A stretch of 64,000 bases of DNA from a virus, in the IMG/VR virus record IMGVR_UViG_3300037851_000102, positions 46,389 through 110,388 of that record; one strand, given 5' to 3'. Below, in pieces: positions 724-59,486 of this stretch. The notes below the pieces were generated by a model. The model worked only from the letters and a program-made list of their open reading frames with translations. It was not told the origin of the DNA and searched no databases. Every line of letters begins with the position of its first letter. Position 1 is the first letter of the stretch. The position numbers and the translations under genes were made by a program.

Positions 724-950
724 AAGAGCAAATTCAGGCGATTGCAGAAGCAGTGGCGGCCTCAGAGGGCACACTCGATGTGAAATCAACGATCACAATG
801 ATGCTTGATGTGATGGCGCTTCAAGCATCAAAGATTGAGGATCTTGAAAAAGGCCAACAAAGGATGCGAGAAGCGTTCTCAACAATCTCAAGTGGCGGCA
901 AGATTCCAACACAAATGGGTGGTAGCAATGGCGGCTTCAGCATCGGGTAG
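720..950 (+). CDS. hypothetical coiled-coil protein
   Basis: AAGGAG RBS, ATG 720 overlapping previous stop. Confidence 0.6.
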   Translation: MKEQIQAIAEAVAASEGTLDVKSTITMMLDVMALQASKIEDLEKGQQRMREAFSTISSGGKIPTQMGGSNGGFSIG

Positions 951-1323
951 GTTCGTTAGAAACGAAGAGTCCAAGAGAGTTTTCAAGAAGTGGATGAACC
1001 TAATCGACAATGGGGAGAAATACTACTTTGCCAAAGCTGCGGATCTCTTCAGTGATCTTCCAGCGCGTCATCAATCAGCATTCATAAAATACTTTGCTGA
1101 TAAGGTGAACGTGAAGTTTTGGCTGGACAATTGGCACGATAGTACGCAGTATCGTGATGTATTACGTTCGATTCTGTTTTATTATTCTGGTCGCGAAAAA
1201 GCGAAAGATCCGAATAAGAAAGAGTTCAGAAATGAGCTTATGGAATTCATGAGGAGTGATGAGTTCAAATCTGGCGTAAAACATGAGGCAAAAGAATTTA
1301 AAGAAGGATTGGAAAGCTTATGA
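928..1323 (+). CDS. hypothetical protein with C-terminal FxxALxxL-type tag (FKEGLESL*)
   Basis: ATG 928 in the 835..1323 frame; shared C-terminal motif. Confidence 0.65.
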   Translation: MAASASGRFVRNEESKRVFKKWMNLIDNGEKYYFAKAADLFSDLPARHQSAFIKYFADKVNVKFWLDNWHDSTQYRDVLRSILFYYSGREKAKDPNKKEFRNELMEFMRSDEFKSGVKHEAKEFKEGLESL

Positions 1324-3842: not shown

Positions 3843-4102
3843 GTGAGAATGAAACTGAAACAATAAAATTTCTGCGCGAGAAACTGGCTGAAGCGCAGGT
3901 TCAAAACGACAAACTTCAAGCGGCACTTGAATCGGCGAAATCTGATATTAAAAACGCTACAAATCTAATTATCGACTTCATTGCGGAGTATTCCACGCCG
4001 AACAATTCACTGAAGACAGAGGACGCATTGGGCGGTCTCAAGAACTTCATAAGAGAGCGGTGTGATAGTGGATCCGAAAAACAAGCTGCGCCAAACGCTT
4101 GA
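3839..4102 (+). CDS. hypothetical coiled-coil protein
   Basis: ATGA-coupled ORF. Confidence 0.6.
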   Translation: MSENETETIKFLREKLAEAQVQNDKLQAALESAKSDIKNATNLIIDFIAEYSTPNNSLKTEDALGGLKNFIRERCDSGSEKQAAPNA

Positions 4103-4337
4103 ACACGCGATAGAGCAAATCAACAGAGATCCGCATCTGGTTCGTTCACACACAGTTGATGCACTTGCAGAGCAAGTTGGGCTCAAACGACGACAAGGGG
4201 AGCCTGACAATGTTCTTTGGGCTCGAATTGAGGGCTCAGGTCGGCTTGATGATTTACGCAAAGAGCTTATGGATAAAATGAATTCGCTTGGCAATGATGA
4301 GGTACGAGACTTTGAATCAGCACTGAAAAACTTGTGA
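4062..4337 (+). CDS. hypothetical protein with baseplate-wedge-like motif, C-terminal tag FESALKNL*
   Basis: VDALAEQVGLKRRQGEPDNVLWARI; shared motif; start could be GTG 4062 or 4068. Confidence 0.65.
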   Translation: MIVDPKNKLRQTLEHAIEQINRDPHLVRSHTVDALAEQVGLKRRQGEPDNVLWARIEGSGRLDDLRKELMDKMNSLGNDEVRDFESALKNL

Positions 4338-4343
4338 GGATGT

Positions 4344-4661
4344 ATGAAGCTGAGGGCGAGAAGCAAATTAGAGGATTCAAAAGAGGTTGAACTTTCAATG
4401 GAATCACTCGGCAAATTGTTGGCGGATGGTCTGAATGGAGTCTTCGAGAAGATCCACACAGATGATTGGAAGAAGTTTTCGTTGAAACTTGAATTCTATG
4501 CCAAAACAGATAGCAACGGCGTGTCAATTGCAAATCTTACATTATCTGAAACGACAAGTGGAGAGAAACCCGCTAACATTAAAAAAGCAGGGAAGCGGGT
4601 TGAGGGCTCCACGGACGGGGCCGCTATTGTTGATTTTCTTGAGGGCTTGAAAAAGCTATGA
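4344..4661 (+). CDS. hypothetical protein, C-terminal tag FLEGLKKL*
   Basis: GAGG RBS; shared motif. Confidence 0.7.
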   Translation: MKLRARSKLEDSKEVELSMESLGKLLADGLNGVFEKIHTDDWKKFSLKLEFYAKTDSNGVSIANLTLSETTSGEKPANIKKAGKRVEGSTDGAAIVDFLEGLKKL

Positions 4662-5062
4662 GTGAATCGGTGAAGCGGCCTTTGTTGATGGTTAAGCCCG
4701 AACTCGTTGCAATGATCGACGATTGGGAGCGCATACGCGGCTCGAAGAGCGATGTAGAGCGCAGAAGACGGGAGCAAGAAGAGATTGCGAAGCTGCCCGT
4801 TTTAGATAGGCTCAAGCGCGAAATTTCAATTGGTGACAGAATAAAATTCGTCACAGCACAGAAGAACCGCAAAGCCGCGCTCGACAAGGAGTATGAGGTC
4901 TTATCAAAGCGGCGATACTGCACGAATCATGATGGTGGAGAGGTTGCGATCCTTTGTGATGATGGGAAGATTCGCGGATACTCGACCAGAAAAGTTGAAG
5001 TTATCAATCCACAAAAACTCAGCGAAATAGAGCAGTTTTCAAACGCATTGGAGCTTTTATGA
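4658..5062 (+). CDS. hypothetical protein (possible SH3-like barrel), C-terminal tag FSNALELL*
   Basis: DRLKREISIGDRIKF pattern; shared motif. Confidence 0.7.
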   Translation: MSESVKRPLLMVKPELVAMIDDWERIRGSKSDVERRRREQEEIAKLPVLDRLKREISIGDRIKFVTAQKNRKAALDKEYEVLSKRRYCTNHDGGEVAILCDDGKIRGYSTRKVEVINPQKLSEIEQFSNALELL

Positions 5063-5406
5063 GCGAAACCATGCGGATGTTCACGCTTTATGTGGTGGAG
5101 AAGGAGACTGGAGAGCGGATTGCGATCCGTCCAGGTCTCATTTTTGAAGAAGAGCCAACAGCGGGAATCGCAAATCGTTTCACGATCAAGGCACTGAACA
5201 CAGAGAAGCGCGAAGTGATTATTGAAGCACACGCATTCAAATCAGAGGTCACAGAATCGTGGGACAAGTTCGTTAAAATGGTCGCAGATGGCGAGTTAAA
5301 GCTCGTTAATTCAGAGAATGTGATCCGCGAGATGCGAGAGGCAAGAGAGCAGGGCAAGAGCGAGCAATCGGCCAAGGATTTTGAGGATGCGCTTAAAAAT
5401 TTATAG
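5059..5406 (+). CDS. hypothetical protein, C-terminal tag FEDALKNL*
   Basis: GGAG RBS, ATGA overlap; shared motif. Confidence 0.7.
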   Translation: MSETMRMFTLYVVEKETGERIAIRPGLIFEEEPTAGIANRFTIKALNTEKREVIIEAHAFKSEVTESWDKFVKMVADGELKLVNSENVIREMREAREQGKSEQSAKDFEDALKNL

Positions 5407-5415
5407 GGGACAGCG

Positions 5416-5892
5416 ATGTTTGATGAGTACAAGACAAGAGTGATGGGCAAGTTTGAAGAGCCAGAGATATCACACAGAGATATTGACAGGCTTGCAGAGT
5501 ATTTCATACGTCGATCATTAAGATACTACGCAGGCGGTGGAGCCAGACACGTTGGCGGTGCGAGAATGCCAATGGAGTTCTACCGAGATCTTGCAAAGCA
5601 GGTGATTGAGCTTGCCTATAAATTTCACGGCGACAAATCGCATTCACTCAAGTCACTCGTTGCAATCATAATCGGGCCCGAAATCGAAAAGATCTTTTCA
5701 CCCGATCCAAGAGAGGCGCGTCCACCTCAAGCAATCCTTGATGAGACCGATGAGAAGTTTTGGAAGATGATGGAAGAGCCAATGCTCACGAAAAAAGACA
5801 TAGAATCCTTTACAGAGAATGATTTTAAGCCAAAGAAGCCAAGGCCAAAGACAGAGATAGAAGAGTTCAACAAGGCACTTAAAAAGCTATGA
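5416..5892 (+). CDS. hypothetical protein, C-terminal tag FNKALKKL*
   Basis: AGGGG RBS; shared motif. Confidence 0.7.
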   Translation: MFDEYKTRVMGKFEEPEISHRDIDRLAEYFIRRSLRYYAGGGARHVGGARMPMEFYRDLAKQVIELAYKFHGDKSHSLKSLVAIIIGPEIEKIFSPDPREARPPQAILDETDEKFWKMMEEPMLTKKDIESFTENDFKPKKPRPKTEIEEFNKALKKL

Positions 5893-6191
5893 GCAAGCTC
5901 CCAAAGACCCGATCAATTTACGATGTCGATAGGCTCACTTCAAGCTCAGAGATAAAGCTCGACGGCAGGACAATCGGCACAATCACAGATATCAGAATCG
6001 AAGACGGCACAGCCCACGTCGAAGCGACAATCACACCGCCAAAGCCCATTGAATCAATCACCTTTGAAGGCACAATCACAGGCTTTGAATCCATTGAAGA
6101 GATCCCAAAACCGAAATCCAAACGCCTCAGACACACACCAAAAGAGAAATCAGAAATTGAAGCATTTGAAGAGGCACTCAAAAACCTATGA
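5889..6191 (+). CDS. hypothetical protein with sheath-C-terminus-like motif, C-terminal tag FEEALKNL*
   Basis: TAHVEATITPPKPIESI resembles this phage's sheath TALINVSITPVQGIDFI; shared motif. Confidence 0.7.
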   Translation: MSKLPKTRSIYDVDRLTSSSEIKLDGRTIGTITDIRIEDGTAHVEATITPPKPIESITFEGTITGFESIEEIPKPKSKRLRHTPKEKSEIEAFEEALKNL

Positions 6192-6514
6192 AGCCAGAAG
6201 GAATCACAATCACACAGTATATGCTTCCCGAAGGCCCAATACACTTTGATACGGCCTCAGCCGAACAGCTCGATAGAATCGGAGAGCTACACGCAATCAG
6301 AAGAGACGACGGAGAGCCAGACGCAAGTTACAGATCCAAGCTATTAAAGGCACTTCATTCAAGAACGTCATACATGACCACAGATGAAGTGAAACAGTTC
6401 TTCGATCCCGACACAGGCAAAGAGTTCGTACAGATAGACCCAAACGAAATTCAAGCCAAAATCCAACACACGCAACAAGTCCAAGACTTTTTGACGGCGC
6501 TCGACAAGCTCTAA
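6188..6514 (+). CDS. hypothetical protein with baseplate-wedge-like motif, C-terminal tag FLTALDKL*
   Basis: FDTASAEQLDRIGELHAIRRDDGEPDASYRSKL; shared motif. Confidence 0.7.
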   Translation: MKPEGITITQYMLPEGPIHFDTASAEQLDRIGELHAIRRDDGEPDASYRSKLLKALHSRTSYMTTDEVKQFFDPDTGKEFVQIDPNEIQAKIQHTQQVQDFLTALDKL

Positions 6515-11106: not shown

Positions 11107-11379
11107 ATGGCTCGATCCAAGAAAAAAGAATTACGCGCAGAAAGTTCTCAAGACCTGGCGACACCTGGGCCCGAAATCGCGAACGTGGATTTTTCTAAAC
11201 CGTGGACTTTGGATCGCCAAGCCTATGACAAAGTGGCGTTTGCCGAGCTGGTCATGAAGCTCAAAACTTCTACGTCGAAGCTGGAATATCATCCAGACGG
11301 GAAGGTGACATTCCATTGGAAGGGAATGGCTAAATCCGCAGAATCACAGAGCTTTTCAAAAGCATTGGAGAATTTATGA
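11107..11379 (+). CDS. hypothetical protein, C-terminal tag FSKALENL*
   Basis: GAGGAG RBS; shared motif. Confidence 0.7.
   Translation: MARSKKKELRAESSQDLATPGPEIANVDFSKPWTLDRQAYDKVAFAELVMKLKTSTSKLEYHPDGKVTFHWKGMAKSAESQSFSKALENL
11265..11282. repeat. copy of 18-bp quasi-palindrome (AACTTCTACGTCGAAGCT)
   Basis: 14-bp core CTTCTACGTCGAAG identical at 45254 and 56527. Confidence 0.5.
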
Positions 11380-11915
11380 TGCCTTATCCAGTTATTATTG
11401 GGGCGATAATCGGAGCCGTTATTGGCGGCCTGATTGGGGCTTACATTGCCAGACGCAGGGTTCAGCCGAAGCTCGATTTATTGGCTCAGAAGAACAGCCA
11501 GCTCGAAGCCAGCCTGAACCAGATGATCTACAAGAAGCCAGGTCGCAGGGCTGAACCCAGCCGCAAACCAGGTGAGTTCGATCCAACTAAGCATAACAGT
11601 TTGCAGCCAGCCAACAGAAAGCCTCTTCCAGTTGAGTTCCAACAGGTGAAAGAGGGTGATGGAGAATTCAAAATTGAGTCTGCAAGTTTCGCGAAACAGA
11701 TGCCCAAGGGCGACTACACATACAGATTTTTCGGTTCACAGCTATCGTTGGGTGAGAATGTTTTGATCTCAGGACTTCAGCGAAAGATGCACCAACTCGA
11801 AATCACAAAGGACGACCAAGTTTACATTGGTGGAGTCGAGTACAGAATCAATCCAAGTGATGTCGAACAACTCAAAAGGGTAATCGCGAAAGCAGAGAAA
11901 ACCGCAGAGGTGTAA
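11376..11915 (+). CDS. membrane-anchored hypothetical protein
   Basis: N-terminal GxxxG-rich TM helix (IIGAIIGAVIGGLIGAYIA). Confidence 0.65.
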   Translation: MMPYPVIIGAIIGAVIGGLIGAYIARRRVQPKLDLLAQKNSQLEASLNQMIYKKPGRRAEPSRKPGEFDPTKHNSLQPANRKPLPVEFQQVKEGDGEFKIESASFAKQMPKGDYTYRFFGSQLSLGENVLISGLQRKMHQLEITKDDQVYIGGVEYRINPSDVEQLKRVIAKAEKTAEV

Positions 11916-11918
11916 TCG

Positions 11919-12443
11919 ATGGCGGTCAATTTCTCGACTCTGTTTGAGGATTTAGTTCGCAACGAGTCGCACAGATATGAATATGATCGCCTTTTGTCAG
12001 AGGCAATCCAAGTCCTCGCCCAAGGCGGCGGTGGAATTCAATGGATTGACGGTGTTCCCTATATTCCAGACCCAGGTCGCGCCAAAAACATATCGCTCAA
12101 TCGTCCAGTTTTTACGGCAGGGTATTATGGTCAGAATCAATCGAGCCGATACCTGAGAGTGGACGGTGTGACCACTTCGAGTGATTCGGGCATTTTGCTC
12201 CCAAGAGATGCAGTGATAACGAGCTTGTGGGGGAAGAGTCGTTCAAACAACAATTGGTCAATAGAAATAAGACGAAATGGCAATCCGATAACGCTTGTGT
12301 CAGTGAATGTGGTTGGTTCGGTTGGCAGTGATCCAGAACTTGATATCGATTTGGACGCTGGGGATTTTATTCAATTTTACATGGTCGGCAGTGGGGTCGA
12401 TCATCCAATCGCAGGCGTAGAAATCGCTTGGCGAGCCAATTAA
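11919..12443 (+). CDS. virion structural protein (fibre-tip-like beta domain)
   Basis: C-terminal domain paralogous to the C-terminus of 12453..13967. Confidence 0.6.
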   Translation: MAVNFSTLFEDLVRNESHRYEYDRLLSEAIQVLAQGGGGIQWIDGVPYIPDPGRAKNISLNRPVFTAGYYGQNQSSRYLRVDGVTTSSDSGILLPRDAVITSLWGKSRSNNNWSIEIRRNGNPITLVSVNVVGSVGSDPELDIDLDAGDFIQFYMVGSGVDHPIAGVEIAWRAN

Positions 12444-12452
12444 GGGGGGCAA

Positions 12453-13967
12453 ATGAGTTTTTTCAGAGTAACAGAACCGAATTCAGTCGCAGTTCCAATT
12501 GATGATTTAGGTATAGTGATCGCGGCGGATGCGGCAAACGTCGTTTTATCAAACCAGTTCTCAGTTCATGATTTGTATCTTTCAGCGGATCTCGAAGCTG
12601 CAATCATCAACGGGGACTTAGATGTAGAGATCAACTACGGCACGGGCTTCGCGGCAGTGGCGGCAGTGGATTATACAAACCGAGATGCACTTGCGGCATT
12701 TTTGAACGTATTTGAAATCACCAACGAAAACTCAAACGAGCGTTTGGTGAACAATACGGACGCTTCTTCGGGTTCACAGCTTCACCATCATGATACGCGA
12801 TACTTCACCAAGACAGAGCTTCAATCGACGGCCAATGGATCTTCGGGCGGCACCTTAATTGGTCTGAACGATGATGCGTGGGACACAGAGTATCCTTTCA
12901 CATTCACGACCTTGCAGGGCTTTGTTGATGGTCTTTACACGATTTTAACAACGGGTTTTGACCTTGACCAAGTTTACGACAACGATGCAGACGGCATTTT
13001 AAATGTCGATGGCACAACGAAGCCTTTGGACTTCAGATCAGACAACGTGAACGACATTATTATCAGTCGTTTCTCAACGCCAGATCTTCAGCAAGCATTG
13101 ATTTTTGATGTCAGCGCAGATGAGTTGATTCTTGGATCTCTTGCGGTTGGTGGACTCAACGACATCAATGTGAGAGTTCGATCAGATCTTATCGTTGATG
13201 GGGACATCGTATTTACAGGGACTATCACAGATACCACAGTCAACGAATTGAACGTGACCAACGCCAACATTCGCTTGCGTGATGGGGCGACAGCGGTTCC
13301 AGGCGCAGATGCTTACATTGAAGTTGAGCGCGGAACTTCGGGCAACGATGCAAGACTTCTTTGGAACGAGACTTCGGATCGTTGGCAGGCAGGCATTGTC
13401 GGCACACTTGGCACCATTGCACTCCTTGAGTTCGATGAGATTGTAACAGGCGTTTGGGAATTCCAAGGCGGAGCGGCCACAGAGCCTTCGATGTACTTGA
13501 CCGACAAGGCATCGGCACCGACCACAAACCTTGGGACTGCAACACAGATCCCAATTTCAATGATTAACAACACTCCTGCGTACTACGACAAATCGAATTC
13601 AAGAAATAAGTTCTTGTCGATGTATCGAATGCACCAAGCGTTCTCAGGTCGTGATAACGCCAACAACTCGAACGAATATCTTCGTGCGGGAGAGTTTACG
13701 TCAAATCAGTCGAGCTATCGCTTGATTAAAAACATGACTCTGATTGGAATCTCAGCACAGACAAACGGAGCGGAGACTTGGACAGCGCGTGTGAGAAAGA
13801 ATGGAGTAGTGACCAACTTGGCCTCTCTCGCTCTTTCAGCGGTCGCTGGAGCCCAAGATGCAACGCTAAACGTGGACTTCAATGCTGGAGATAAGATCGA
13901 AGTTTATTGCGATGGCACAGGCGTTGACAGACCTTTTGTGATGCTTGAGTTCGCTGAAAGGTTCTAA
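12453..13967 (+). CDS. fibre-like virion protein
   Basis: HHHDTRYFTKTEL fibre motif; IEVERGTSGNDARLLWNETSDRW fibre segment. Confidence 0.65.
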   Translation: MSFFRVTEPNSVAVPIDDLGIVIAADAANVVLSNQFSVHDLYLSADLEAAIINGDLDVEINYGTGFAAVAAVDYTNRDALAAFLNVFEITNENSNERLVNNTDASSGSQLHHHDTRYFTKTELQSTANGSSGGTLIGLNDDAWDTEYPFTFTTLQGFVDGLYTILTTGFDLDQVYDNDADGILNVDGTTKPLDFRSDNVNDIIISRFSTPDLQQALIFDVSADELILGSLAVGGLNDINVRVRSDLIVDGDIVFTGTITDTTVNELNVTNANIRLRDGATAVPGADAYIEVERGTSGNDARLLWNETSDRWQAGIVGTLGTIALLEFDEIVTGVWEFQGGAATEPSMYLTDKASAPTTNLGTATQIPISMINNTPAYYDKSNSRNKFLSMYRMHQAFSGRDNANNSNEYLRAGEFTSNQSSYRLIKNMTLIGISAQTNGAETWTARVRKNGVVTNLASLALSAVAGAQDATLNVDFNAGDKIEVYCDGTGVDRPFVMLEFAERF

Positions 13968-14950
13968 TGCCTAAGCTGTTTCTATCCACAACTGGAGCAG
14001 ATGTCGTGATCCCCGAATTGGGGATCTCGATTATTCATCCAGCAACGGATTATGAAATAGACGCGCAATTCTCTGCGGAAGATCTTGCGCTTGCATCGAG
14101 CTTAACGACAGCAATCAATAATGGTTCACTTGTATGGAAGAAGACTGCGGGCGGTTCAGCACAGCCGCCAACAGATTACGATCCAGATTATTTGGAAGCA
14201 GAAGAACTCTCAGGCGGTTCAGGCAATCTGAATCAACAGCTTGTCAAATCTCTTGGGAGTTCAATTCTAAGCCTCAAGGCGCAAGTTCAGGCGACAGTGG
14301 CGGGGACATTGGTTCTCACACGCGGGACTTCGACAGTTTTGATTTTTACAGGCACGACAGCGGGTCAGATCATTCAGCTACCAGGTGCGACGACACTGGA
14401 TAACGGCCATTATTTTGAAGTTTGGAACGTCAGCACAGAATCAATCGTTGTTAAGAATGCAGGCGGCGGGACACTCTTCACGATAGGTCAGACATCGACG
14501 GCGTATATTAAATTGCAAGACAACACGACATCGAATGGGTTGTGGGTGTACTGGCAGGTTTTCGTTTCAGCACTTGCAGCGGGAATTCTAAACTACACGC
14601 TCACTTCGGGCGTGAACTTCATAACAGCATCGACATCGGACACGATCATCACTGGATTTACAGTGACACCACAAGCGGGCTTGTATGCAGCGTGGTTCTC
14701 TTGTGATGTGACGATTGCGACCAACAACAGGCTTATGGACTCGGTTCTTTACATTGGCGGAGTCGAGAACGCCAACACGCGAAGGACAGTCCAAGGGGTC
14801 TCTTCAAACTTTAGAGCAACATCATCAGTCATCGGTCTTGCCAACGTGAACGGATCGCAAGCGGTGGATGTATGGGTGAAGAGTTCGGGCGGTAACATCA
14901 CCGTTGGTCAGCGTTCGCTCGTTCTAATTAGATTGGGGACAAACGTATGA
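13967..14950 (+). CDS. fibre-like virion protein
   Basis: N-terminus paralogous to 12453; FTGTTAGQIIQLPGATTL fibre motif; beta-rich C-terminal domain. Confidence 0.6.
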   Translation: MPKLFLSTTGADVVIPELGISIIHPATDYEIDAQFSAEDLALASSLTTAINNGSLVWKKTAGGSAQPPTDYDPDYLEAEELSGGSGNLNQQLVKSLGSSILSLKAQVQATVAGTLVLTRGTSTVLIFTGTTAGQIIQLPGATTLDNGHYFEVWNVSTESIVVKNAGGGTLFTIGQTSTAYIKLQDNTTSNGLWVYWQVFVSALAAGILNYTLTSGVNFITASTSDTIITGFTVTPQAGLYAAWFSCDVTIATNNRLMDSVLYIGGVENANTRRTVQGVSSNFRATSSVIGLANVNGSQAVDVWVKSSGGNITVGQRSLVLIRLGTNV

Positions 14951-15651
14951 TGGTATTTAATTTTACGAAATCACCGTGCAATCCTGCGCGATTAAAACTT
15001 GAGATCGAAGCATCTTCAATCACAGTGGCACTTGCATCGGTCTCTCTATTGGGTGCAGATGCGTTGACCGTTTCTTTTAAGGCAGATCTTTCTGCGGGCG
15101 AAGAGACGACTCTTAACGGTCTTGTGACCGCACACACGGGCGAAGATCTTCCAGATGATTATGTGGCGACAGTACAGCTTGAAGCACTTCCAGAGCCAGA
15201 GCCCTTTGCAAAGCCGAGCTTTAGAACAAAGCGAAACAAGACGGCAGCGTGGCAGACGATCACCGAAGGTCAGACAGTGGATCTCGATTTTCTTTTGACA
15301 GAAGAGCGATACGTTTCAGGTGGAGAGATCATTTACAAGGGAGCAAAAGAGGGCGACTACGTTAAAGCCTCAGTGATGGACGTATTCAATGGGGGAGTGA
15401 TACCAGCACCATATCGTCCAGCCAACGTCGGCATTTGCGAGAATTGGCCCCTTGTGAATGAGTATATTAACGGCGAGTGGATTGTTCCGAACAACACGAA
15501 TGAAGAGTACAAGAGCAAGATTATCAACACATATCCTTTGAACGCGAAGATCACTCCATATTTGGTTTTGCGAGTGACCTACACAGCATCGGCAGAAGCG
15601 GGTGAGAGACACGTCGCCGTGAACTATCATCTCACGAAAAAATTGTTATGA
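14947..15651 (+). CDS. probable virion structural protein
   Basis: context and beta-rich composition. Confidence 0.5.
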   Translation: MMVFNFTKSPCNPARLKLEIEASSITVALASVSLLGADALTVSFKADLSAGEETTLNGLVTAHTGEDLPDDYVATVQLEALPEPEPFAKPSFRTKRNKTAAWQTITEGQTVDLDFLLTEERYVSGGEIIYKGAKEGDYVKASVMDVFNGGVIPAPYRPANVGICENWPLVNEYINGEWIVPNNTNEEYKSKIINTYPLNAKITPYLVLRVTYTASAEAGERHVAVNYHLTKKLL

Positions 15652-33551: not shown

Positions 33552-34373
33552 ATGGATAAACCCTTCTACATTGGTGAGAACGACTTTCGCGTTTGGCTTC
33601 CAGACATTCAACTCATCGAAAAATCCGAAGACTCTGAAAAATACAATTCTCGTAAAATTTTTGGCATTATGTCCACTGATCGTAAAGATCGGCAGGGCGA
33701 AGTTGTAGAGGCTAAGGGCCTCGATTTTGATGAATTTTTATCTCACGGACACTTCAACGATAACCATTCACAGGATACCAGCGCAATCGTCGGCTATCCA
33801 GAGAGCGTGAAGTATCATGCTTCTTTGGCGCAGTTCGATCCCAAACTGAAGAACGCTTCAGGATGGACTTGCGAAGGATTCGTCTTAAAGGGCACCAAGC
33901 GTTCCGAAGCAATTTGGGAACTTGCGAAGGCTCTCACATCTGTTCCAGGCCGAAGTCTCGGCTTCTCAATTGAAGGTAAAGTGAGTCGAAGAGAGGACAA
34001 GACAATCAAATCTGCAAAGATTCGTAACGTGGCAATCACAAATTGTCCCGTGAACACTGATTGTTCTTGGAGCGTTCTCGAAAAATCCTTCCACCAACCA
34101 GACATGGCAATCAAGGCGATGACCGCTGGATACGGCGTTTCGCCTGCCACACAGTCTGGCGGTGGAGCAATTAGAGCAGAATCTTTGGATCATGATCCGA
34201 AGAAGGTGTCTGAGGTTCTCGATAAAAAGAAAAAACGAGAAGAGGCTCTGAAGAGAGCGTTAGGATTTGAAGACATGGTTAAAGCAATGGAATTGGTTTT
34301 GGAGCGTCGGCCTGACTTCGATGATGAAGCGGCGGCAGCGTTCATTAACTTCATTTTTAAGAAAGGGGGGTGA
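33552..34373 (+). CDS. prohead protease
   Basis: GIMST..KDRQGE, GHFNDNH, LGFSIEG, NVAIT.CPVN; position before scaffold and MCP. Confidence 0.9.
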   Translation: MDKPFYIGENDFRVWLPDIQLIEKSEDSEKYNSRKIFGIMSTDRKDRQGEVVEAKGLDFDEFLSHGHFNDNHSQDTSAIVGYPESVKYHASLAQFDPKLKNASGWTCEGFVLKGTKRSEAIWELAKALTSVPGRSLGFSIEGKVSRREDKTIKSAKIRNVAITNCPVNTDCSWSVLEKSFHQPDMAIKAMTAGYGVSPATQSGGGAIRAESLDHDPKKVSEVLDKKKKREEALKRALGFEDMVKAMELVLERRPDFDDEAAAAFINFIFKKGG

Positions 34374-37265: not shown

Positions 37266-37673
37266 ATGGTTCAAGAGTGGACACCTGAAACAAAGCCCTT
37301 TAGTCAGGGCGAAGTTGATTACGCCGAACATTCTGCTTTTGCGAAAGCGAAGAAGGTTATCGATGGCCCTCTGAACATTCCGCAACATGAGTCTGTGGCT
37401 GGCCGTCAAGCGGCAGCGATCCACAAGGCGATGGCTGGAGCAATTACTGTTGGAAGCGCCGATGGATTGAAGCAAGGCAAAGCATATCGAATGATATCGA
37501 ATATCGCCTTTCACTTTGTCCAAGCGGCTGAAGAGTTCGCTGGCCCTGCAACAGTCAGTGACACATACGTTCCAGCAAATACTCCTGTTGTAATCCAAAT
37601 GATTCAGTATGATCGCGTTTACGCGATTCCAAATTCTGGATCAGGATTTTTACAACTGGTTGAGGTGCGATAA
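37266..37673 (+). CDS. hypothetical (possibly virion) protein
   Basis: GAGG RBS. Confidence 0.6.
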   Translation: MVQEWTPETKPFSQGEVDYAEHSAFAKAKKVIDGPLNIPQHESVAGRQAAAIHKAMAGAITVGSADGLKQGKAYRMISNIAFHFVQAAEEFAGPATVSDTYVPANTPVVIQMIQYDRVYAIPNSGSGFLQLVEVR

Positions 37674-38152
37674 TGTTTGAAACGGGCAATTCTCTTGCGA
37701 AAAGGCACGGCATGGCTGGCAAGCCAATATACGTCGTGTGGCAGAGGATGAAAGAGCGTTGCCTGAAATCAGATCACAAAGACTTCAAAAATTATGGCGG
37801 CAGAGGCATTCAGCTTTGCAAAGAGTGGAACTCTTTTGTTCCGTTTTTTGAATGGGCAAAGGCCGCTGGATACGAGCGCGGATTGACATTGGATCGAATA
37901 GACAATGATGGAGACTATTCTCCATCCAACTGTCGTTGGGTCACAAAAGCTGAAAACAATAAGAATAAAAGAAAAAGAATGATTAAGGTTGGCGGATTGA
38001 GCGGTGACTATCAGTTTTGGGCAAAAAGACTTGGATGTGATCCAAGAAGGATTTCTCTTAGAATATCTTCTGGATGGAGTCCCGAAAGAGCCGTGACTCA
38101 ACCAGTTCTGCCTGTCGGGAAGGGTAAAACTTATGAGTCTTCCTTTATTTGA
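37673..38152 (+). CDS. free-standing HNH homing endonuclease
   Basis: WQRMKERC...YGGRGI.LC.EW..F..F..W...GY...LTLDRIDNDGDYSPSNCRWVT...N. Confidence 0.88.
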   Translation: MFETGNSLAKRHGMAGKPIYVVWQRMKERCLKSDHKDFKNYGGRGIQLCKEWNSFVPFFEWAKAAGYERGLTLDRIDNDGDYSPSNCRWVTKAENNKNKRKRMIKVGGLSGDYQFWAKRLGCDPRRISLRISSGWSPERAVTQPVLPVGKGKTYESSFI

Positions 38153-42686: not shown

Positions 42687-44819
42687 ATGGCAATTAAGCG
42701 CACATTCAATGGAGCGACGATTATCAAGCCAGGTGCGTACTCGAAAATCGTCGTCGAGAATCTTACTGGCTTCCCTCTACAGCCCACAGGTGTCGTTGGC
42801 ATCGTTGGTGAAGCTGTAGGTGGAGAACCGCACGTTTTGGATTTCTTGAGCAAAGAAGGCATTCAAGATGCCAAGGCTCGATATAAAGAAGGCCCAATCG
42901 CAGATGCTCTTGAGCTTCTTGCGAATCCTTCTTTCGATCCACGAATTCCAAACGGCGCAAGTCAAATCGTTGTTTACAAGACCAATGCAGGCACACAATC
43001 TGCGCGGGCTCTTGCAAACGACCACGGCACACCCGTAACGGCTTTGAATCTAACCTCAAAGAATTGGGGCGATGATGAGAACCAGTTATCGGTCGCTGTA
43101 AACGCTGGAGCAATCTTGGATGCACACGCATTCATTGGTGGATCTGTAGCAGGCCCGTACACACTGGCTGGCGCAGAGACTCTGATCGTGATTGCAAATG
43201 GCGTTTCTTATACGTTCACGAATACTCTGACAGGTTCAACAACCGCTGCGGCTTTAATCGCAGAGTTGAACACTCCTGCACGATGGGCTCCTTCTAAGCC
43301 TGTGATCGCTGCCGCTCACAACACAACTGCAATCAAGATCACTCTTGATCCAACAGTTGTTACTGGCGGTCAATACGATTACGGATGCTTGAAGATCAAT
43401 GCAGCATCGACCATCGACACAATCGTAGGTATCACTGGCGAAGCTCGCGGTGTGAAAGGTTCTCGAATCTTCACATTCACAAAGGGCACGTTCAGCGAAA
43501 CTTCGTTGGATCTTGGCGGTGTGAAAGAGCTTCAAGTGAAGTATGTTGGAGCGGGAACTGCGGCGACCTTAGACATCCAAGATGTTTCAGGCGAAAAAGT
43601 TCTTTCAACAGTAATCACTGGAACTCCAGCGGACAACTTGAGCATCGTTCTTGTGGACGACCAAGGTCGAAACAAGTACACGATGAAAGCTCTCGCAGAT
43701 CTTATCAACTCTCACGCAGCATACGAAGCAAGCGCAGTTGGGCCGAACCCACTCGCAAATGCTGGTTTGCTTGATTACGTTGATGATCTTGAGATCATGA
43801 CTGTCGCTGCGACAATCACCAAAGATATGTATGAAATCGAAAGCTACATCAACACGTTCACAACTCTTGCGAACGCTGCGAAGGTGTCAAACGTAGAGCG
43901 CGGTCTTGCGATTGTTGCAAGTCCAGTGTTCTTCTCTGGCGGTTCAGATGGAGTGAGTGCGAACAGCGATTTCGCGGATGGATTTGAGGCTTTCAAAGAA
44001 GCTCGAATCAACGTGGTTGTTCCATTGATTTCAAAAGATATCGGTGCATTGACTATCGATTCGATCAACGCTCTTGCCGCTTCACACGCAGCATGGGGCT
44101 GGTCAACGACTGGTAAGAGTGAGCGAGCAGGATTTATTTCAATCGAAGGCTCTAAGACAGCGTTCAAGGATGCTGCGAAGGCCATCAATTCTGGATACGT
44201 TTCAATCGTCGGCCAACAGGTTCGAGTTCTTGATAAGTTCGGGAATTTGAACTGGAAGGATCCTTGGGCTCTTGCTTGTATCCTTGCGGGTATGAGAGCG
44301 GGTGCTGAGGTTGGTGAACCTTTGACGAGCAAGACCATCAACGTGAACGATGTTCGCGTGACAGATGGATCTTGGCAGCCTCGTAAAGATTACGCCGAGA
44401 TGATCGAAGCTGGATGTACGATTGTTGAGCCTCTGGACACTGGCGGATTCCGCTGCGTTCTTGGCAACACGACGTATGTTACCGATGGCAGTTTCGTGTG
44501 GAACCGAGAATCAGTTGTTCAAGCGGCAGGCTATGTGGCCTACGACCTTCGATTCAACTTGGATCTTCAGTTCACAGGAAGCAAGGCAAGGACTGGAACC
44601 GCAGAAGCAATTGCGAACTTCGTTAAGAATCGCATGAGCTTGTATCTTGATGCAGACATCATCGTTGGAGACGACGACAATGAAGGTATCGGTTACAAAA
44701 ACTTGAGCGTGGTCGTTCAAGGGAATACGGCTCTAATCAATGTGTCGATCACTCCTGTTCAGGGAATCGACTTTATCTTGCCAACAATCTATCTCGCCGA
44801 CATTAGGCAGAGTGCATAA
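42687..44819 (+). CDS. tail sheath protein
   Basis: IIKPGAYS, VGIVGEA.GG, FSGGSDG, GEPLTSK, C-terminal ITPVQGIDFI. Confidence 0.93.
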   Translation: MAIKRTFNGATIIKPGAYSKIVVENLTGFPLQPTGVVGIVGEAVGGEPHVLDFLSKEGIQDAKARYKEGPIADALELLANPSFDPRIPNGASQIVVYKTNAGTQSARALANDHGTPVTALNLTSKNWGDDENQLSVAVNAGAILDAHAFIGGSVAGPYTLAGAETLIVIANGVSYTFTNTLTGSTTAAALIAELNTPARWAPSKPVIAAAHNTTAIKITLDPTVVTGGQYDYGCLKINAASTIDTIVGITGEARGVKGSRIFTFTKGTFSETSLDLGGVKELQVKYVGAGTAATLDIQDVSGEKVLSTVITGTPADNLSIVLVDDQGRNKYTMKALADLINSHAAYEASAVGPNPLANAGLLDYVDDLEIMTVAATITKDMYEIESYINTFTTLANAAKVSNVERGLAIVASPVFFSGGSDGVSANSDFADGFEAFKEARINVVVPLISKDIGALTIDSINALAASHAAWGWSTTGKSERAGFISIEGSKTAFKDAAKAINSGYVSIVGQQVRVLDKFGNLNWKDPWALACILAGMRAGAEVGEPLTSKTINVNDVRVTDGSWQPRKDYAEMIEAGCTIVEPLDTGGFRCVLGNTTYVTDGSFVWNRESVVQAAGYVAYDLRFNLDLQFTGSKARTGTAEAIANFVKNRMSLYLDADIIVGDDDNEGIGYKNLSVVVQGNTALINVSITPVQGIDFILPTIYLADIRQSA

Positions 44820-54827: not shown

Positions 54828-57800
54828 ATGAGTTTGTTTGTACCAAGGACGTTCCCAGAGATTGTTGGAGAGATGCAAGAGCGATTGATCTCTGTGACTC
54901 CGATCACCGATTTAAACTTTGGTGCCGTCGCGTTCACAATGCTCGAAGCTGCGGCTCAAGAAGATGATGAACAATACTTCCAGATGCTCGAAATTATCCG
55001 TGGATATTCTCTTGATACCACGACAGGAAGCGATCTTGATAACCGAGCGTTTGAATATGGTCTTGAAAGATTGCAGGCTCAGGTCGCATCAACGAATGTG
55101 ACTCTTGGAGATTCTGCGGTAACAAAAGTTTCAACTGGAGTTTACTCTGGTCTTCCTGGAGCGTCGGCTGGTTCAACAAGTGTGAACGGCGATAGCTCAA
55201 CAGGATTCCCTGTGAGTGGATCGATCATTGTTGGTCGTGGCACTCCGAATGCTGAAACAATCACATACGTTTCGATCACAGATAACGGCAATTATGTGAC
55301 GTTTAATCTTGGTGGAGCGTTGGCGTTCGATCATGGAACCGATGAGACGATTATTCTTTCTCAAGCAGGCAACAGAGTTGTTCCTGCGGGCACAGTCGTA
55401 AAAGTTCCAGCGAGCGATGTAAATCCTGAAATCACTTTTACACTGGATGCGATTGCAACGATTCTCGATGGAGAATCTGAACTCACAGGTGTCGCGGTCA
55501 CTGCGGCTGAAGCGGGTTCAAAAGCCAACGTGCCAGTTGGATCGATCATTCAGTATGATTCTCCGCCATTCTCAACGGCGACAGTGACGAATCCTTCGCG
55601 TGTGACAAACGGTCGAGATATCGAAAGCGATCAAGAGCTTCGCGATAGAATCAAAGATCGAATTCAATCTCTTTCGCGTGGAACTGGCGTTTCAATTATT
55701 ACAAACGTGATTGGTGTTATTTCTGACACTGAAAACAAGCGTGTCGTTTCAGCTTCTCTCGTTGAGCCGACAATCCCTGCGGATGTTGTGAGACTTTTCA
55801 TCGATGATGGAACTGGTTTCGTGGCGACCTTCGCGGGCGTGGGTTATGAAGAAGTTGTTCCATCTGCAACAGGTGGAGAGGTATTTTTAAATATCAACAA
55901 CTTCCCTATCACAAAAGCATTTGTCGAGACTCAGAACCAAGAGCCGTACAATTTGGTTGGCGGAGAAACCTTGATCGTCGATGTAGGCGGGAAGATTGAA
56001 ACCATCACCTTTGAGTCAACGGATTTTGCCATAGCGGGACAAGCGACTGCGCAAGAGGTTTTGAAACGAATCAATGGTGCTGCCCAAGGTTTTGAGTCTC
56101 GCGTTTCTTCTGGCGGTGTGAAGATTCGTATCTTTGCACGACAAAACTTTGATGAAGCAATCAGAGTGACAGGTGGAACAGCGAACACGGCTTTGAACTT
56201 TGTTACTGATAAGAAATTTACAACTAAGGTTTATCTTGAAAGAGATCTTGGAATTTCTCTTTTGAACAAGGATGGATCAACGGCAACGATGGAATCTGGC
56301 AATGCTCAGGTTTACGATTTCTCTGCCTTGGATCGAGTCCTTTCTTTCGTGGTGGATGGTAAAAAGAACGTGCAGCTTGCTTGGTTCAGGCCAGCCGATT
56401 TCTTGAATCCACCAAGCGCGACGGCTCTTGAGGTCGTTCAGCTTATCAACGAACAGATTTCTGGTCTTATCGCGTCAAGAAGCTCGAACAATACCCGCGT
56501 TTCTTTGACCTCGAACACGATCAGATCTTCTACGTCGAAGTTACAGATCGTTGAGAATTTCACGCGAGTCTTAAAATTCAATGGAGCATTCACTAATATC
56601 ACCGCTCAGGCGATTGCTACAGCGGCAGATGCTCAGATTTTTGATGCCAATGGCGACATCCTTTACCTTGGACATTCAACTGTTCAGTTTAGAACGGCCT
56701 TCTTTTCGCCTCAAATTCCTGCCAGTGCGCCAATGGGTTACGATGCTGAATACTGGAACGGATCCTCTTGGACGGCTTTGCCAGTGTTTGATGGAACCCT
56801 TGGATTCACGGTCGCAGGACATTTTGAATTCCAAGCTCCGCACGATTGGGAGATCAACACGGTTGATTCTTTCGATGCGTACTGGATTCGATTTGTGCGA
56901 AACGATGCGGGTCTTGTGACTCCGCCAACTGAGGATCGCATTAGGATTTCTTCAGCCAATGAACTTTTGGCATTCCCTGAGATTGCGGCTGAGGGTTCAA
57001 ACCGTGATTACACGCTGAACAGATTCCTTGGACAAATTGAGCTTATTGAGCCTTTAAATCCAGGGGACTTCGTAACGATTGGCTCGTTCAATACGCGAGC
57101 CTTTGTGGTTACAGCGGCGCAGACGTTCAATCTTGTTGGCGGTGAAACGCTGAACATTTCAGTCGATGGCGTTCCGCAAGTGGTGACATTCCAGATTGCA
57201 GACTTTGGAACTCCGAGTGCTGCGGTCGCATCTGAGGTGCTTTCAAGAATCAACAAAGATCTCAAGGGCGCAACAGCGACTCTTGTTGAGTTGAATACGA
57301 AAGTAAAGATCGCATCGAACAAGTGGAACGGTGGAACGATCCAAGTCACAGGTGGAACCGCAGTGGCGACTCTTGGCCTTGATACAGATCTTCATGAGAG
57401 CTTTTCTCCTCACGTTCCAGCCGTTGAGTCTGGCAACGCTGAACCTTATGTTTTCAATGCTGACGATCAGGTGATTGTGATTGTTGATGGCAATTTGGCT
57501 AACAACTTCACAGTGCCTCTTTACACTCAGAGAACTACGGGCGCAGGCTCGTCTGCTTCTCAGATTGTCGATGCAACATTGAACACGGTCTTCCCGCTTA
57601 ACGCTGATTTGACTGATTACGATGTTGAAATGATTTCGGGCCCTGAAGCTGGCAACAGAAGAAACATTCTTTCGTACAACGCTGGCACAGGCACGATCAT
57701 CTTTGATTCGGCCTTTGGAAGCTCTGTTGGAACGGGTCAGGCTTATCAAATCATTCCAACAAATGCAGATCAGGTCGTTCGCTTCTGGAATAACACGAAG

Positions 57801-58352
57801 ATCACGCTTCTTTCTACTCGCGCAGAAGTGAAAACTTCTTCGGGTGGAGTGAAGGTTCAAATTGCCTCATTGAGTTCAGGAGACGCTTCTTCGATTCAAG
57901 TTTCAGGTGGAACGGGCAACACTGTTCTCAACTTCTCAACAGCAACAAGGCTTGGTGTGGATGGATACCGCCATTACACGGGTCTTGCGCAGATTGCACA
58001 GTGGACGATTGATGGAAGACAGGACGATCAAGAAACATATCCAGGCTATCGCGCAGCGGGAGTTCAGATTGAAGTTCTTGAGCCTGTGAGAATTCCGATC
58101 CGAGTTGAGCTTGACGTTACAACTCGCGAAGGCATCACGCTTTCTTCGATCTCAAACGATATCAAATCCGCAGTTTCGACCTACATCAATACTTTGCCTG
58201 TGGGTGAAGACGTGATCGTGAGTTCGATTACTTGTGCAGTGAAGGAAGTTGATGGCGTGTTTGATGTGACTGTGGCCGCACCGACAGCGAACATTGCGAT
58301 TGCAGACAACGAGCTTGCAAGGATTAGCGACTCAGAGATCATCGTCGGCTAA
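54828..58352 (+). CDS. baseplate J-like wedge protein with repeated inserted domains
   Basis: LDTTTGSDLD, AAEAGSKANV, GRDIESDQELRDRI, GYRAAGVQIEV, YINTLPVGEDV. Confidence 0.85.
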   Translation: MSLFVPRTFPEIVGEMQERLISVTPITDLNFGAVAFTMLEAAAQEDDEQYFQMLEIIRGYSLDTTTGSDLDNRAFEYGLERLQAQVASTNVTLGDSAVTKVSTGVYSGLPGASAGSTSVNGDSSTGFPVSGSIIVGRGTPNAETITYVSITDNGNYVTFNLGGALAFDHGTDETIILSQAGNRVVPAGTVVKVPASDVNPEITFTLDAIATILDGESELTGVAVTAAEAGSKANVPVGSIIQYDSPPFSTATVTNPSRVTNGRDIESDQELRDRIKDRIQSLSRGTGVSIITNVIGVISDTENKRVVSASLVEPTIPADVVRLFIDDGTGFVATFAGVGYEEVVPSATGGEVFLNINNFPITKAFVETQNQEPYNLVGGETLIVDVGGKIETITFESTDFAIAGQATAQEVLKRINGAAQGFESRVSSGGVKIRIFARQNFDEAIRVTGGTANTALNFVTDKKFTTKVYLERDLGISLLNKDGSTATMESGNAQVYDFSALDRVLSFVVDGKKNVQLAWFRPADFLNPPSATALEVVQLINEQISGLIASRSSNNTRVSLTSNTIRSSTSKLQIVENFTRVLKFNGAFTNITAQAIATAADAQIFDANGDILYLGHSTVQFRTAFFSPQIPASAPMGYDAEYWNGSSWTALPVFDGTLGFTVAGHFEFQAPHDWEINTVDSFDAYWIRFVRNDAGLVTPPTEDRIRISSANELLAFPEIAAEGSNRDYTLNRFLGQIELIEPLNPGDFVTIGSFNTRAFVVTAAQTFNLVGGETLNISVDGVPQVVTFQIADFGTPSAAVASEVLSRINKDLKGATATLVELNTKVKIASNKWNGGTIQVTGGTAVATLGLDTDLHESFSPHVPAVESGNAEPYVFNADDQVIVIVDGNLANNFTVPLYTQRTTGAGSSASQIVDATLNTVFPLNADLTDYDVEMISGPEAGNRRNILSYNAGTGTIIFDSAFGSSVGTGQAYQIIPTNADQVVRFWNNTKITLLSTRAEVKTSSGGVKVQIASLSSGDASSIQVSGGTGNTVLNFSTATRLGVDGYRHYTGLAQIAQWTIDGRQDDQETYPGYRAAGVQIEVLEPVRIPIRVELDVTTREGITLSSISNDIKSAVSTYINTLPVGEDVIVSSITCAVKEVDGVFDVTVAAPTANIAIADNELARISDSEIIVG
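56525..56542. repeat. copy of quasi-palindrome (ATCTTCTACGTCGAAGTT)
   Basis: 17/18 identical to the 45252 copy. Confidence 0.5.
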
Positions 58353-58364
58353 GGAAGGGGAGAC

Positions 58365-59486
58365 ATGAGCAAATTAAATAGTATGTCGCGTTTCGTTCCA
58401 GGCCTTTATAGGCCGACGACGAACGTCCATGTCAAAGGTCTCCTTTACGCATGGTCAGGTGAAGACGATCAGATTGTTCAGGCGATTCAAGATGCCAAAG
58501 AGCAGATTTATGTGAAGCTCGCAAAGCTCCAGTATCTCGACTCTCTTGGCTCGAATGTCGGCGTGTTCAGACCTTCTTCAATTGGCCTTGCAGATGAGCA
58601 ATATCGCGAACTGATTCCAGCGCTTTCTTTTTATCCAAAGCAGGTCGTTCCAACGATCAAAAAGGTTCTCGAGGTATTCTTTGGAGCAGGCAATCCAAGG
58701 GTCGCTGTTTTTGAGGTTAATCCAAATGAAATAGTGATCCAAATTCCAAGCTCTGTTCCAGCCTTGCGAAGAACCCTGAAGGGCTCAAATCACTTCCATT
58801 CTTATGCTGGAACCATAACCGCCATCGATAACATCGTAAAAACCCTTACGGTCAACTTCCATTCATCCACTCAGAATTTGATTGTGGATGAGCTTGCGGG
58901 TGCGACCTTTGGTGTTGGGGCGATCACAAGGCCGATACTCTCGAATCAGGCTGGTTATTCAGGAGTTGTGATTCAATTCGCCGCAAGCTCGAATCTTTTG
59001 GACTACACAGTTGGAGACAGCTTCAACATTGCGGATGTGACCAACTACCCTGGATCGTTTGTTCCAGACATTCGCAAGACCTACACGGTCACAAAGCAAA
59101 GAGGCATTCTTGGTCAAAGTATTACGGCAGGCAACATCTATCCAACTTTGACCATGCAAGATGCTTCGGGAATTCCAGATGGAAGCGGTCGATTGATCTT
59201 CTCGTATGGCCGTGGAGCCGAAGAGGTGGATATCAAGTATTTTGGCCGTCCAAATAACACGACGCTTCTACTTGATCCAAGTTACACGTTTTTGAAAAAT
59301 CATTCGATAGGGGAAGTCGTGAACGTGATCGTAAAGCCATATCAAGAGCCAGCACAGGACGGAACTGATCTGAGTGTGTTCTTGGTCGGGGTTGAGGCGG
59401 CTCGAATTTTGGCTCAACAAATCGTTGAGAGTGTGGTCGCAGCGGGAGTCGTAGTCAGATGGATTGTTTTAGATCCAGAGTGTTAA
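58365..59486 (+). CDS. baseplate wedge subunit (gpI-like)
   Basis: YLDSLGSNVGVFRP...DEQYRELI; VAAGVVV end. Confidence 0.7.
   Translation: MSKLNSMSRFVPGLYRPTTNVHVKGLLYAWSGEDDQIVQAIQDAKEQIYVKLAKLQYLDSLGSNVGVFRPSSIGLADEQYRELIPALSFYPKQVVPTIKKVLEVFFGAGNPRVAVFEVNPNEIVIQIPSSVPALRRTLKGSNHFHSYAGTITAIDNIVKTLTVNFHSSTQNLIVDELAGATFGVGAITRPILSNQAGYSGVVIQFAASSNLLDYTVGDSFNIADVTNYPGSFVPDIRKTYTVTKQRGILGQSITAGNIYPTLTMQDASGIPDGSGRLIFSYGRGAEEVDIKYFGRPNNTTLLLDPSYTFLKNHSIGEVVNVIVKPYQEPAQDGTDLSVFLVGVEAARILAQQIVESVVAAGVVVRWIVLDPEC

Follow-up and report, generated by a model that had tools for sequence, protein, structure and literature searches.

The stretch of DNA analysed here, referred to as the window, comprises 64,000 nucleotides (bases 46389-110388) of the 110,388-bp virus record IMGVR_UViG_3300037851_000102, which is rated complete and comes from a myophage. 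Close to its start lies an array of seven consecutive, tightly packed plus-strand genes (positions 4062-6514), all of whose products end in a common C-terminal tag, and the last of these genes, at 6188-6514, is the main subject of this report. Namely, judging from sequence comparison, residues about 16-93 of its product are a truncated, diverged remote homologue of the N-terminal domain (domain I, or DI) of baseplate wedge proteins. The following features enter the comparison (positions in the window).

6188-6514, plus strand: 108-aa tagged protein; wedge-like residues about 16-93 (nt 6233-6466), followed by a linker and the tag V-Q-D-F-L-T-A-L-D-K-L (nt 6479-6511)
58365-59486, plus strand: wedge protein of the phage itself, in the gp7/gpI position after Baseplate_J; the domain to which the 6188 protein is similar takes up its N-terminal ~135 residues (nt 58365-58769)
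54828-58352, plus strand: Baseplate_J (gp6-like) wedge protein; motif in two parts, residues 62-81 and 266-275
4062-4337, plus strand: 91-aa tagged protein; GTG start with AGAGAG upstream; tag at nt 4302-4334
5889-6191, plus strand: 100-aa tagged protein; tag at nt 6156-6188
42687-44819, plus strand: tail sheath, whose C-terminal peptide was compared with the 5889 protein

The wedge-like domain of the 6188 protein

A sequence-only reading of this DNA had proposed that several tagged proteins carry isolated fragments of baseplate and sheath motifs. The peptides it quoted are all where it placed them, namely the motifs of the 6188 and 4062 proteins, both peptides of the 5889 protein, and the tail motifs at residues 62 and 266 of Baseplate_J, at residues 57 and 77 of the 58365 protein and at residue 681, in the C-terminus of the sheath. 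For the 6188 protein, the proposed resemblance to the wedge proved significant and consistent in register. In particular, five of its seven best matches in PHROGs are baseplate families (phrog_1160 with E 7e-5, then 5857, 7378, 4017 and 4056), all at profile positions about 55-125 and regardless of whether the tag is included, and the phage's own wedge protein matches phrog_1160 (E 7e-6) and 7378 over the same positions. Nine other tagged proteins were tested, and none matches a baseplate PHROG. Compared directly with the 58365 protein, BLASTP aligns residues 18-92 with residues 48-127 (E 0.063), and hhalign against 47 family members returns the same alignment (P 0.035), in which the family-invariant residues L58, D59, G62, R69, D77, R81 and N121 are retained. 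Finally, when 12 tagged proteins were paired with four structural targets in a shuffle test, the 6188 protein with the N-terminal domain of the own wedge protein was the best of all 48 pairings (z 3.7, p 0.005).

Profile searches point in the same direction. Relatives of the phage were found via the wedge protein, of which more than 150 relatives exist, and the profile tests covered all 10,501 open reading frames (ORFs) of nine genomes. With a broad wedge profile, built from the best 150 family representatives, nine wedge proteins come first and Baseplate_J proteins second, and next, ahead of all other real genes, is the 6188 protein (E 0.67), in the same register and at profile positions 49-126. 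A two-sequence profile of the 6188 protein and its G003 counterpart, which lies at the contig end, matches the wedge representative P0269 with E 7e-5 in 10,651 sequences; the match spans residues 16-93, including the final Q-I-x-P-x-E-I strand, and wedge representatives account for about 17 of the 25 top matches of this profile, as against 1.4% of the database. The register of the 6188 protein relative to the wedge domain is identical across all methods, and its predicted helices (25-33, 46-59 and 65-70) match in position the helices aligned with them (21-62, 77-89 and 94-106) in the AlphaFold2 model of the 58365 protein. Its own single-sequence AlphaFold2 model is of low confidence, with a mean predicted local distance difference test (pLDDT) value of 46, and agrees with the family model in the order of helices alone.

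What kind of domain is this? An exhaustive profile search with the wedge N-terminal domain collected 875 representatives (E<=0.001), which range between 79 and 1558 aa in length, and the domain is a conserved N-terminal docking domain carried on variable C-terminal parts. When PDB sequences were searched with the family profile, the best match was Phi92_gp146, a weak one (E 0.066). As reported for baseplates of known structure, two gp6-like subunits are held together by domain I of the gp7/gpI-type wedge protein, within the (gp6)2-gp7 core bundle (PMC10457771). In phage XM1, domains I of gp16 and gp17 are homologous and together form the (gp16)2-gp17 core bundle, with gp16 having a further domain inserted into its domain I (PMC10457771). 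The helix-loop-helix motif in our phage fits this arrangement, as it is contiguous in the 58365 protein and split in Baseplate_J.

The 6188 protein shares with domain I of the gp7/gp6-type wedges (gp7/gp6 of T4, gp17/gp16 of XM1) the helix-loop-helix L-D..G....R...D..[YL]R..[LI], as well as two further helices and a beta-hairpin with P-N-E-I. It differs from it in size, location and architecture. Namely, the complete domain is ~130 aa long and includes the first helix of a helix-turn-helix (21-62 in the family model), whereas the 6188 protein has ~78 residues of it, without the first ~45 residues and without anything that follows the domain. Its gene lies ~52 kb upstream, in the accessory array, and the domain is followed by a linker and the tag instead of variable C-terminal domains. 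What is more, phmmer ranks P0269 first (E 0.005) and gives the own wedge protein 2.3 bits; the 6188 gene is not a recent copy of gene 58365, and by sequence the protein stands closer to a different wedge subfamily (P0269, P0264) than to the wedge protein of its own phage.

Other searches with the 6188 protein added little. A word-based homologue search retrieved the protein itself alone, a search of PDB sequences gave no match, and a metagenome scan found no 6188-type proteins. The protein language-model Atlas provided weak leads only, with two baseplate rows at a template modelling (TM) score of about 0.4, and hhalign with a mixed four-sequence alignment brought no gain over the single sequence.

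The 4062 and 5889 proteins

The 4062 protein carries the motif V-D-A-L-A..G-L-K-R..G-E-P-D..W-A-R-I. One orthologue is encoded at the equivalent place of the G002 array (95514-95783, tagged; E 0.012 in the full set of ORFs), another in G003 (1042-1422), and the three proteins have R-x-x-G-E-x-D-x-x-L-x-A-R-[ILM] in common. Taken by itself, the 4062 protein shows no baseplate match in Pfam, nor in PHROGs at E<=1; its hhalign comparison with the wedge family (P 0.33) is equalled by a control, and its shuffle p of 0.026 by that of the control p928 (0.024). BLASTP does align it with the 6188 protein (E 3e-4), the alignment consisting partly of tag-like sequence. A profile of the three orthologous sequences ranks wedge representatives and 6188-type proteins at the top, all of them with E>0.3.

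A further protein of this kind, of ~98 aa and tagged, is found on metagenome contig L078 (about L078:672-968), with the motif A-S-G-A-D-L-D-K-L-A..Y-G-M-A-R...E-S-D-D-G-L-R-K-R-M, and it matches the broad wedge profile in the register proposed by the sequence-only reading. When six sequences are combined into a motif profile, this retrieves almost exclusively Baseplate_J proteins (two-part matches, best E 3.6e-4) and gp7-type proteins; with the L078 sequence removed, wedge proteins still lead (best E 0.0097). Small proteins that combine motif and tag recur in G002, G003 and contig L078. The link between the 4062 type and the wedge is suggestive only, its basis being the ranking of matches and not a significant score, and we consider a true origin of this type from the wedge motif slightly more likely than not.

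The sheath-like and tube-like stretches that had been noticed in the 5889 protein fared differently. No sheath or tube family matches it in Pfam or PHROGs, BLASTP finds nothing at the sheath C-terminus and E 0.12 elsewhere in the sheath, and Smith-Waterman comparisons give p 0.13 for the sheath and 0.43 for the tube. The 17-mer in question shares 7/17 identities with the sheath, and each of 12 shuffles of the whole protein attains 7 or 8 identities at some place in the structural proteome. Being at chance level, the resemblance to sheath or tube was rejected. Consequently, of the tail-part fragments proposed for the tagged proteins, the wedge domain of the 6188 protein stands and the sheath and tube fragments of the 5889 protein do not; the profile comparison was significant against wedge families for the former, found no sheath family for the latter, and was negative for the Pfam families Baseplate_J, Tail_P2_I and DUF2612.

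Instead, the N-terminal part of the 5889 protein is probably a small beta-barrel that is MlaD-like below threshold. Residues 12-49 match MlaD (PF02470) with E 4.8e-4 and 20.8 bits, short of the cut-off of 25.1 bits, and the low-confidence Atlas model has MlaD and GcvT-C barrels as neighbours, with three MlaD clusters among the nearest at TM below 0.5. This match and these neighbours, which point to the MlaD/MCE barrel, are the only lead for the protein, which differs in having no membrane anchor.

The shared C-terminal tag

The tag is common to about 18 otherwise unrelated proteins of the phage, and counting confirmed that it is real. The strict form F-x-x-[AG]-L-x-x-[LFIM] occurs at the very C-terminus of 15 real-looking ORFs in the 110-kb genome (~0.25 expected), and, with 0-3 trailing residues permitted, 18 are observed versus 1.9 in shuffles. 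Leu, Ala and Phe codons differ synonymously among the copies; selection therefore targets the peptide rather than the DNA, and a DNA-level signal was rejected for the same reason. Positions -11, -8, -5/-4 and -1 are hydrophobic or small and thus form one face of a helix, and residues 85-107 of the 6188 protein are helical in its AlphaFold2 model.

Other lineages carry the tag in variant forms, namely F-M-x-[ED]-L-x-x-I in G002 (L047-L052), F-L-x-A-[LIV]-x-x-L with 0-2 further residues in G003 (L059-L062) and F-x-x-[EAL]-L-x-x-[LI] in G007 (L072-L074). This co-variation between lineages could aid in finding the receptor. The tag is absent from the complete relatives G001 and G005. In tag-less G001, the orthologue (57015-57497) of the tagged protein at window 928-1323 keeps a tag-like helix, A-F-K-E-E-L-E-E-V, which is followed by 13 extra residues and is therefore not terminal. 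A 182-aa protein of the phage (L003:2315-2860; genome 20312-20860, minus strand) ends in S-F-S-E-A-L-K-A-I-G-E, that is, in the tag plus two residues, and in its G007 homologue the tag is exactly terminal.

Recognisable domains occur in two tagged proteins only, namely WGR (PF05406) and DUF6744. The gene of the WGR protein (L002:18321-18767, minus strand in genome coordinates) adjoins that of an ATP-dependent DNA ligase; the protein is kept with its tag in G002 and G007, and tag-less G001 is without it. None of the structural proteins ends in the tag. The head maturation protease (window 33552-34373) has the C-terminus A-A-F-I-N-F-I-F-K-K-G-G, which is amphipathic and differs from the tag.

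As for a receptor, a gene-content comparison of the relatives revealed no gene restricted to tag-bearing genomes. A five-gene block at 11376-15651 was considered as the receptor and rejected, because G004 also has the block, yet the G004 fragment is almost tag-less. The block, found in G000, G002 and G004 and not in G001, encodes a 179-aa glycine-zipper membrane protein followed by proteins of 174, 504, 327 and 234 aa, none of the five with a Pfam match and neither of the two tested (504 and 327 aa) with a PHROG match. In G004, the gene preceding the homologue of the 504-aa protein, a counterpart of the 174-aa protein, resembles residues 367-503 of the 504-aa protein. Scanning IMG/VR with the back-translated tag gave two matches, both spurious, and literature searches for such a tag returned nothing relevant.

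Bacterial microcompartment encapsulation peptides and encapsulin cargo-loading peptides are terminal targeting helices of cargo proteins. The tag is like them in its layout, with a domain, a flexible linker and a short amphipathic terminal peptide recurring across many unrelated proteins. It is unlike them in that it has no sequence similarity to these peptides and varies between related phages, and in that no compartment or receptor is known for it.

The array and its genomic setting

All seven ORFs of the array terminate in h-x-x-F-x-x-[AG]-L-x-x-[LF]-COOH, and four of the six junctions between them are ATGA four-base overlaps. Apart from the three genes discussed above, the array consists of the following members.

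4344-4661, plus strand: tagged, coupled
4658-5062, plus strand: tagged, coupled
5059-5406, plus strand: tagged, coupled
5416-5892, plus strand: tagged, coupled

These four show no structural-protein likeness and have no orthologue among the eight relatives. In general, most tagged neighbours of the 6188 and 4062 genes are found in this phage alone, and the array is hypervariable.

Elsewhere, the structural genes comprise those for the large terminase, portal, head protease, a T4-like major head protein, sheath, tube-initiator and Baseplate_J (54828), and then the wedge protein (58365). The early half of the genome encodes a DnaE-type polymerase, helicase, primase, ligase, single-stranded DNA-binding protein, a RecA-like protein and SbcCD. 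Downstream of the wedge genes, at window 59500-63999, a frame of >1500 aa runs off the end of the record; the record may be truncated inside this gene, or it may be circularly permuted. An HNH endonuclease gene (window 37673-38152; phrog_3377, E 1e-50) separates the gene of the major head protein from the next structural genes, and the relatives are without it at the matching position. The portal and head-protease ORFs are much longer in G002 than in G000. Finally, the DnaE-type polymerase of G002 (78345-82625; L050/L051) contains a large insertion between C-L-H-P... and ...V-H-N-S that is intein-like in look.

Discussion

The reading that we favour, with a confidence slightly better than even, is that the tagged genes form an accessory array with a common docking helix, in which the 6188 protein is a diverged, truncated wedge domain I, the 4062 type is probably a reduced version of it, and the 5889 protein is unrelated to sheath or tube. 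In particular, the genes at 4062-6514 are translationally coupled accessory genes whose products each start with a different small domain, continue with a charged linker and end in the docking helix that they share. The 4062 protein and its orthologues probably carry a still more reduced form of the helix-loop-helix motif of the 6188 protein. The mini-wedge domain of the latter would bind a gp6/gp7-type wedge surface, and the tag would link it to whatever partner recognises all tagged proteins. As for the wedge surface in question, that of another contractile system is slightly favoured over that of the phage itself, since the 6188 protein lies nearer to a different wedge subfamily and its gene sits in an accessory array.

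That said, several observations weigh against this reading. The similarities of the 6188 protein to the wedge are all weak, with ~30% identity and at most 23 bits. Baseplate_J, Tail_P2_I and DUF2612 of Pfam match none of the ten tagged proteins at E<=1; the narrow profile of the phage's own clade scores the 6188 protein at just E 11, and the 2.3 bits that phmmer gives the own wedge protein are similarly low. On the structural side, the pLDDT of 46 means that there is no confident three-dimensional model of the 6188 protein, and Foldseek of the 58365 model against the PDB found no wedge match. As the first helix of the helix-turn-helix is lacking, the protein may be unable to enter the core bundle. 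For the 4062 protein, the register preferred by HMMER differs from the one proposed earlier. Lastly, both the binding of the 6188 protein to any wedge protein and the nature of the tag's partner are purely inferred.

Could all three resemblances simply reflect chance, or the composition of helical proteins, with the array consisting of unrelated, fast-evolving accessory proteins that share a tag? The negative Pfam result and the own-clade E of 11 speak for this, as do the control p928 that matches the 4062 protein in the shuffle test, the sheath match at chance level and the fact that most array genes are without orthologues. However, several independent scores of the 6188 protein are significant and fall in one consistent register, and the architecture of motif plus tag recurs in four phages. 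We consider this explanation unlikely.

Equally unlikely, in our estimate, is the functional proposal that the mini-wedges are decoys or poison subunits for the baseplates of competing phages, tailocins or type VI secretion systems (T6SS), or that they occupy host sensors that recognise wedges, the tag routing the bound partner to a hub. What lends it some appeal is that the 6188 protein sits in a hypervariable accessory array and is nearer to a foreign wedge subfamily than to its own wedge protein. The target, the sensor and the hub are all putative, though, and the 6188 protein is without half of the helix-turn-helix that forms the bundle. Moreover, other tagged proteins carry unrelated domains (WGR, DUF6744), so that the tag is not specific to structural mimics. 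In its boldest form, which we regard as distinctly improbable, the tagged mini-wedge family would exploit the universal (gp6)2-gp7 core-bundle interface, sabotaging the baseplates of rival phages, tailocins or T6SS or blinding a host wedge sensor, with the docking helix delivering the partner to a common hub.

Service to the phage's own tail, either as an assembly factor that holds Baseplate_J until its true wedge partner arrives or as a minor virion component, would be in keeping with homology to a domain that pairs with gp6-like subunits and with the retention of 6188-type and 4062-type genes in relatives with the same tail module, but we deem it quite improbable, given that the genes lie 36-52 kb from the tail genes in an accessory region, that the complete relative G001 is without them in spite of having the same baseplate genes at 58-59% identity, and that scores against the own wedge protein are poor.

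Returning to the truncated wedge domain in an accessory array, its significance lies in the combination, namely that a fragment of the very module keeping baseplate wedges together is fused to a tag present in about 18 proteins. Should the 6188 protein turn out not to bind wedge subunits, it would be an example of structural-gene fragments recycled into accessory proteins. If it does bind them, it would be a tool of natural origin against contractile machines, acting as a dominant negative or an adaptor, and it would offer a way to find the receptor of the tag.

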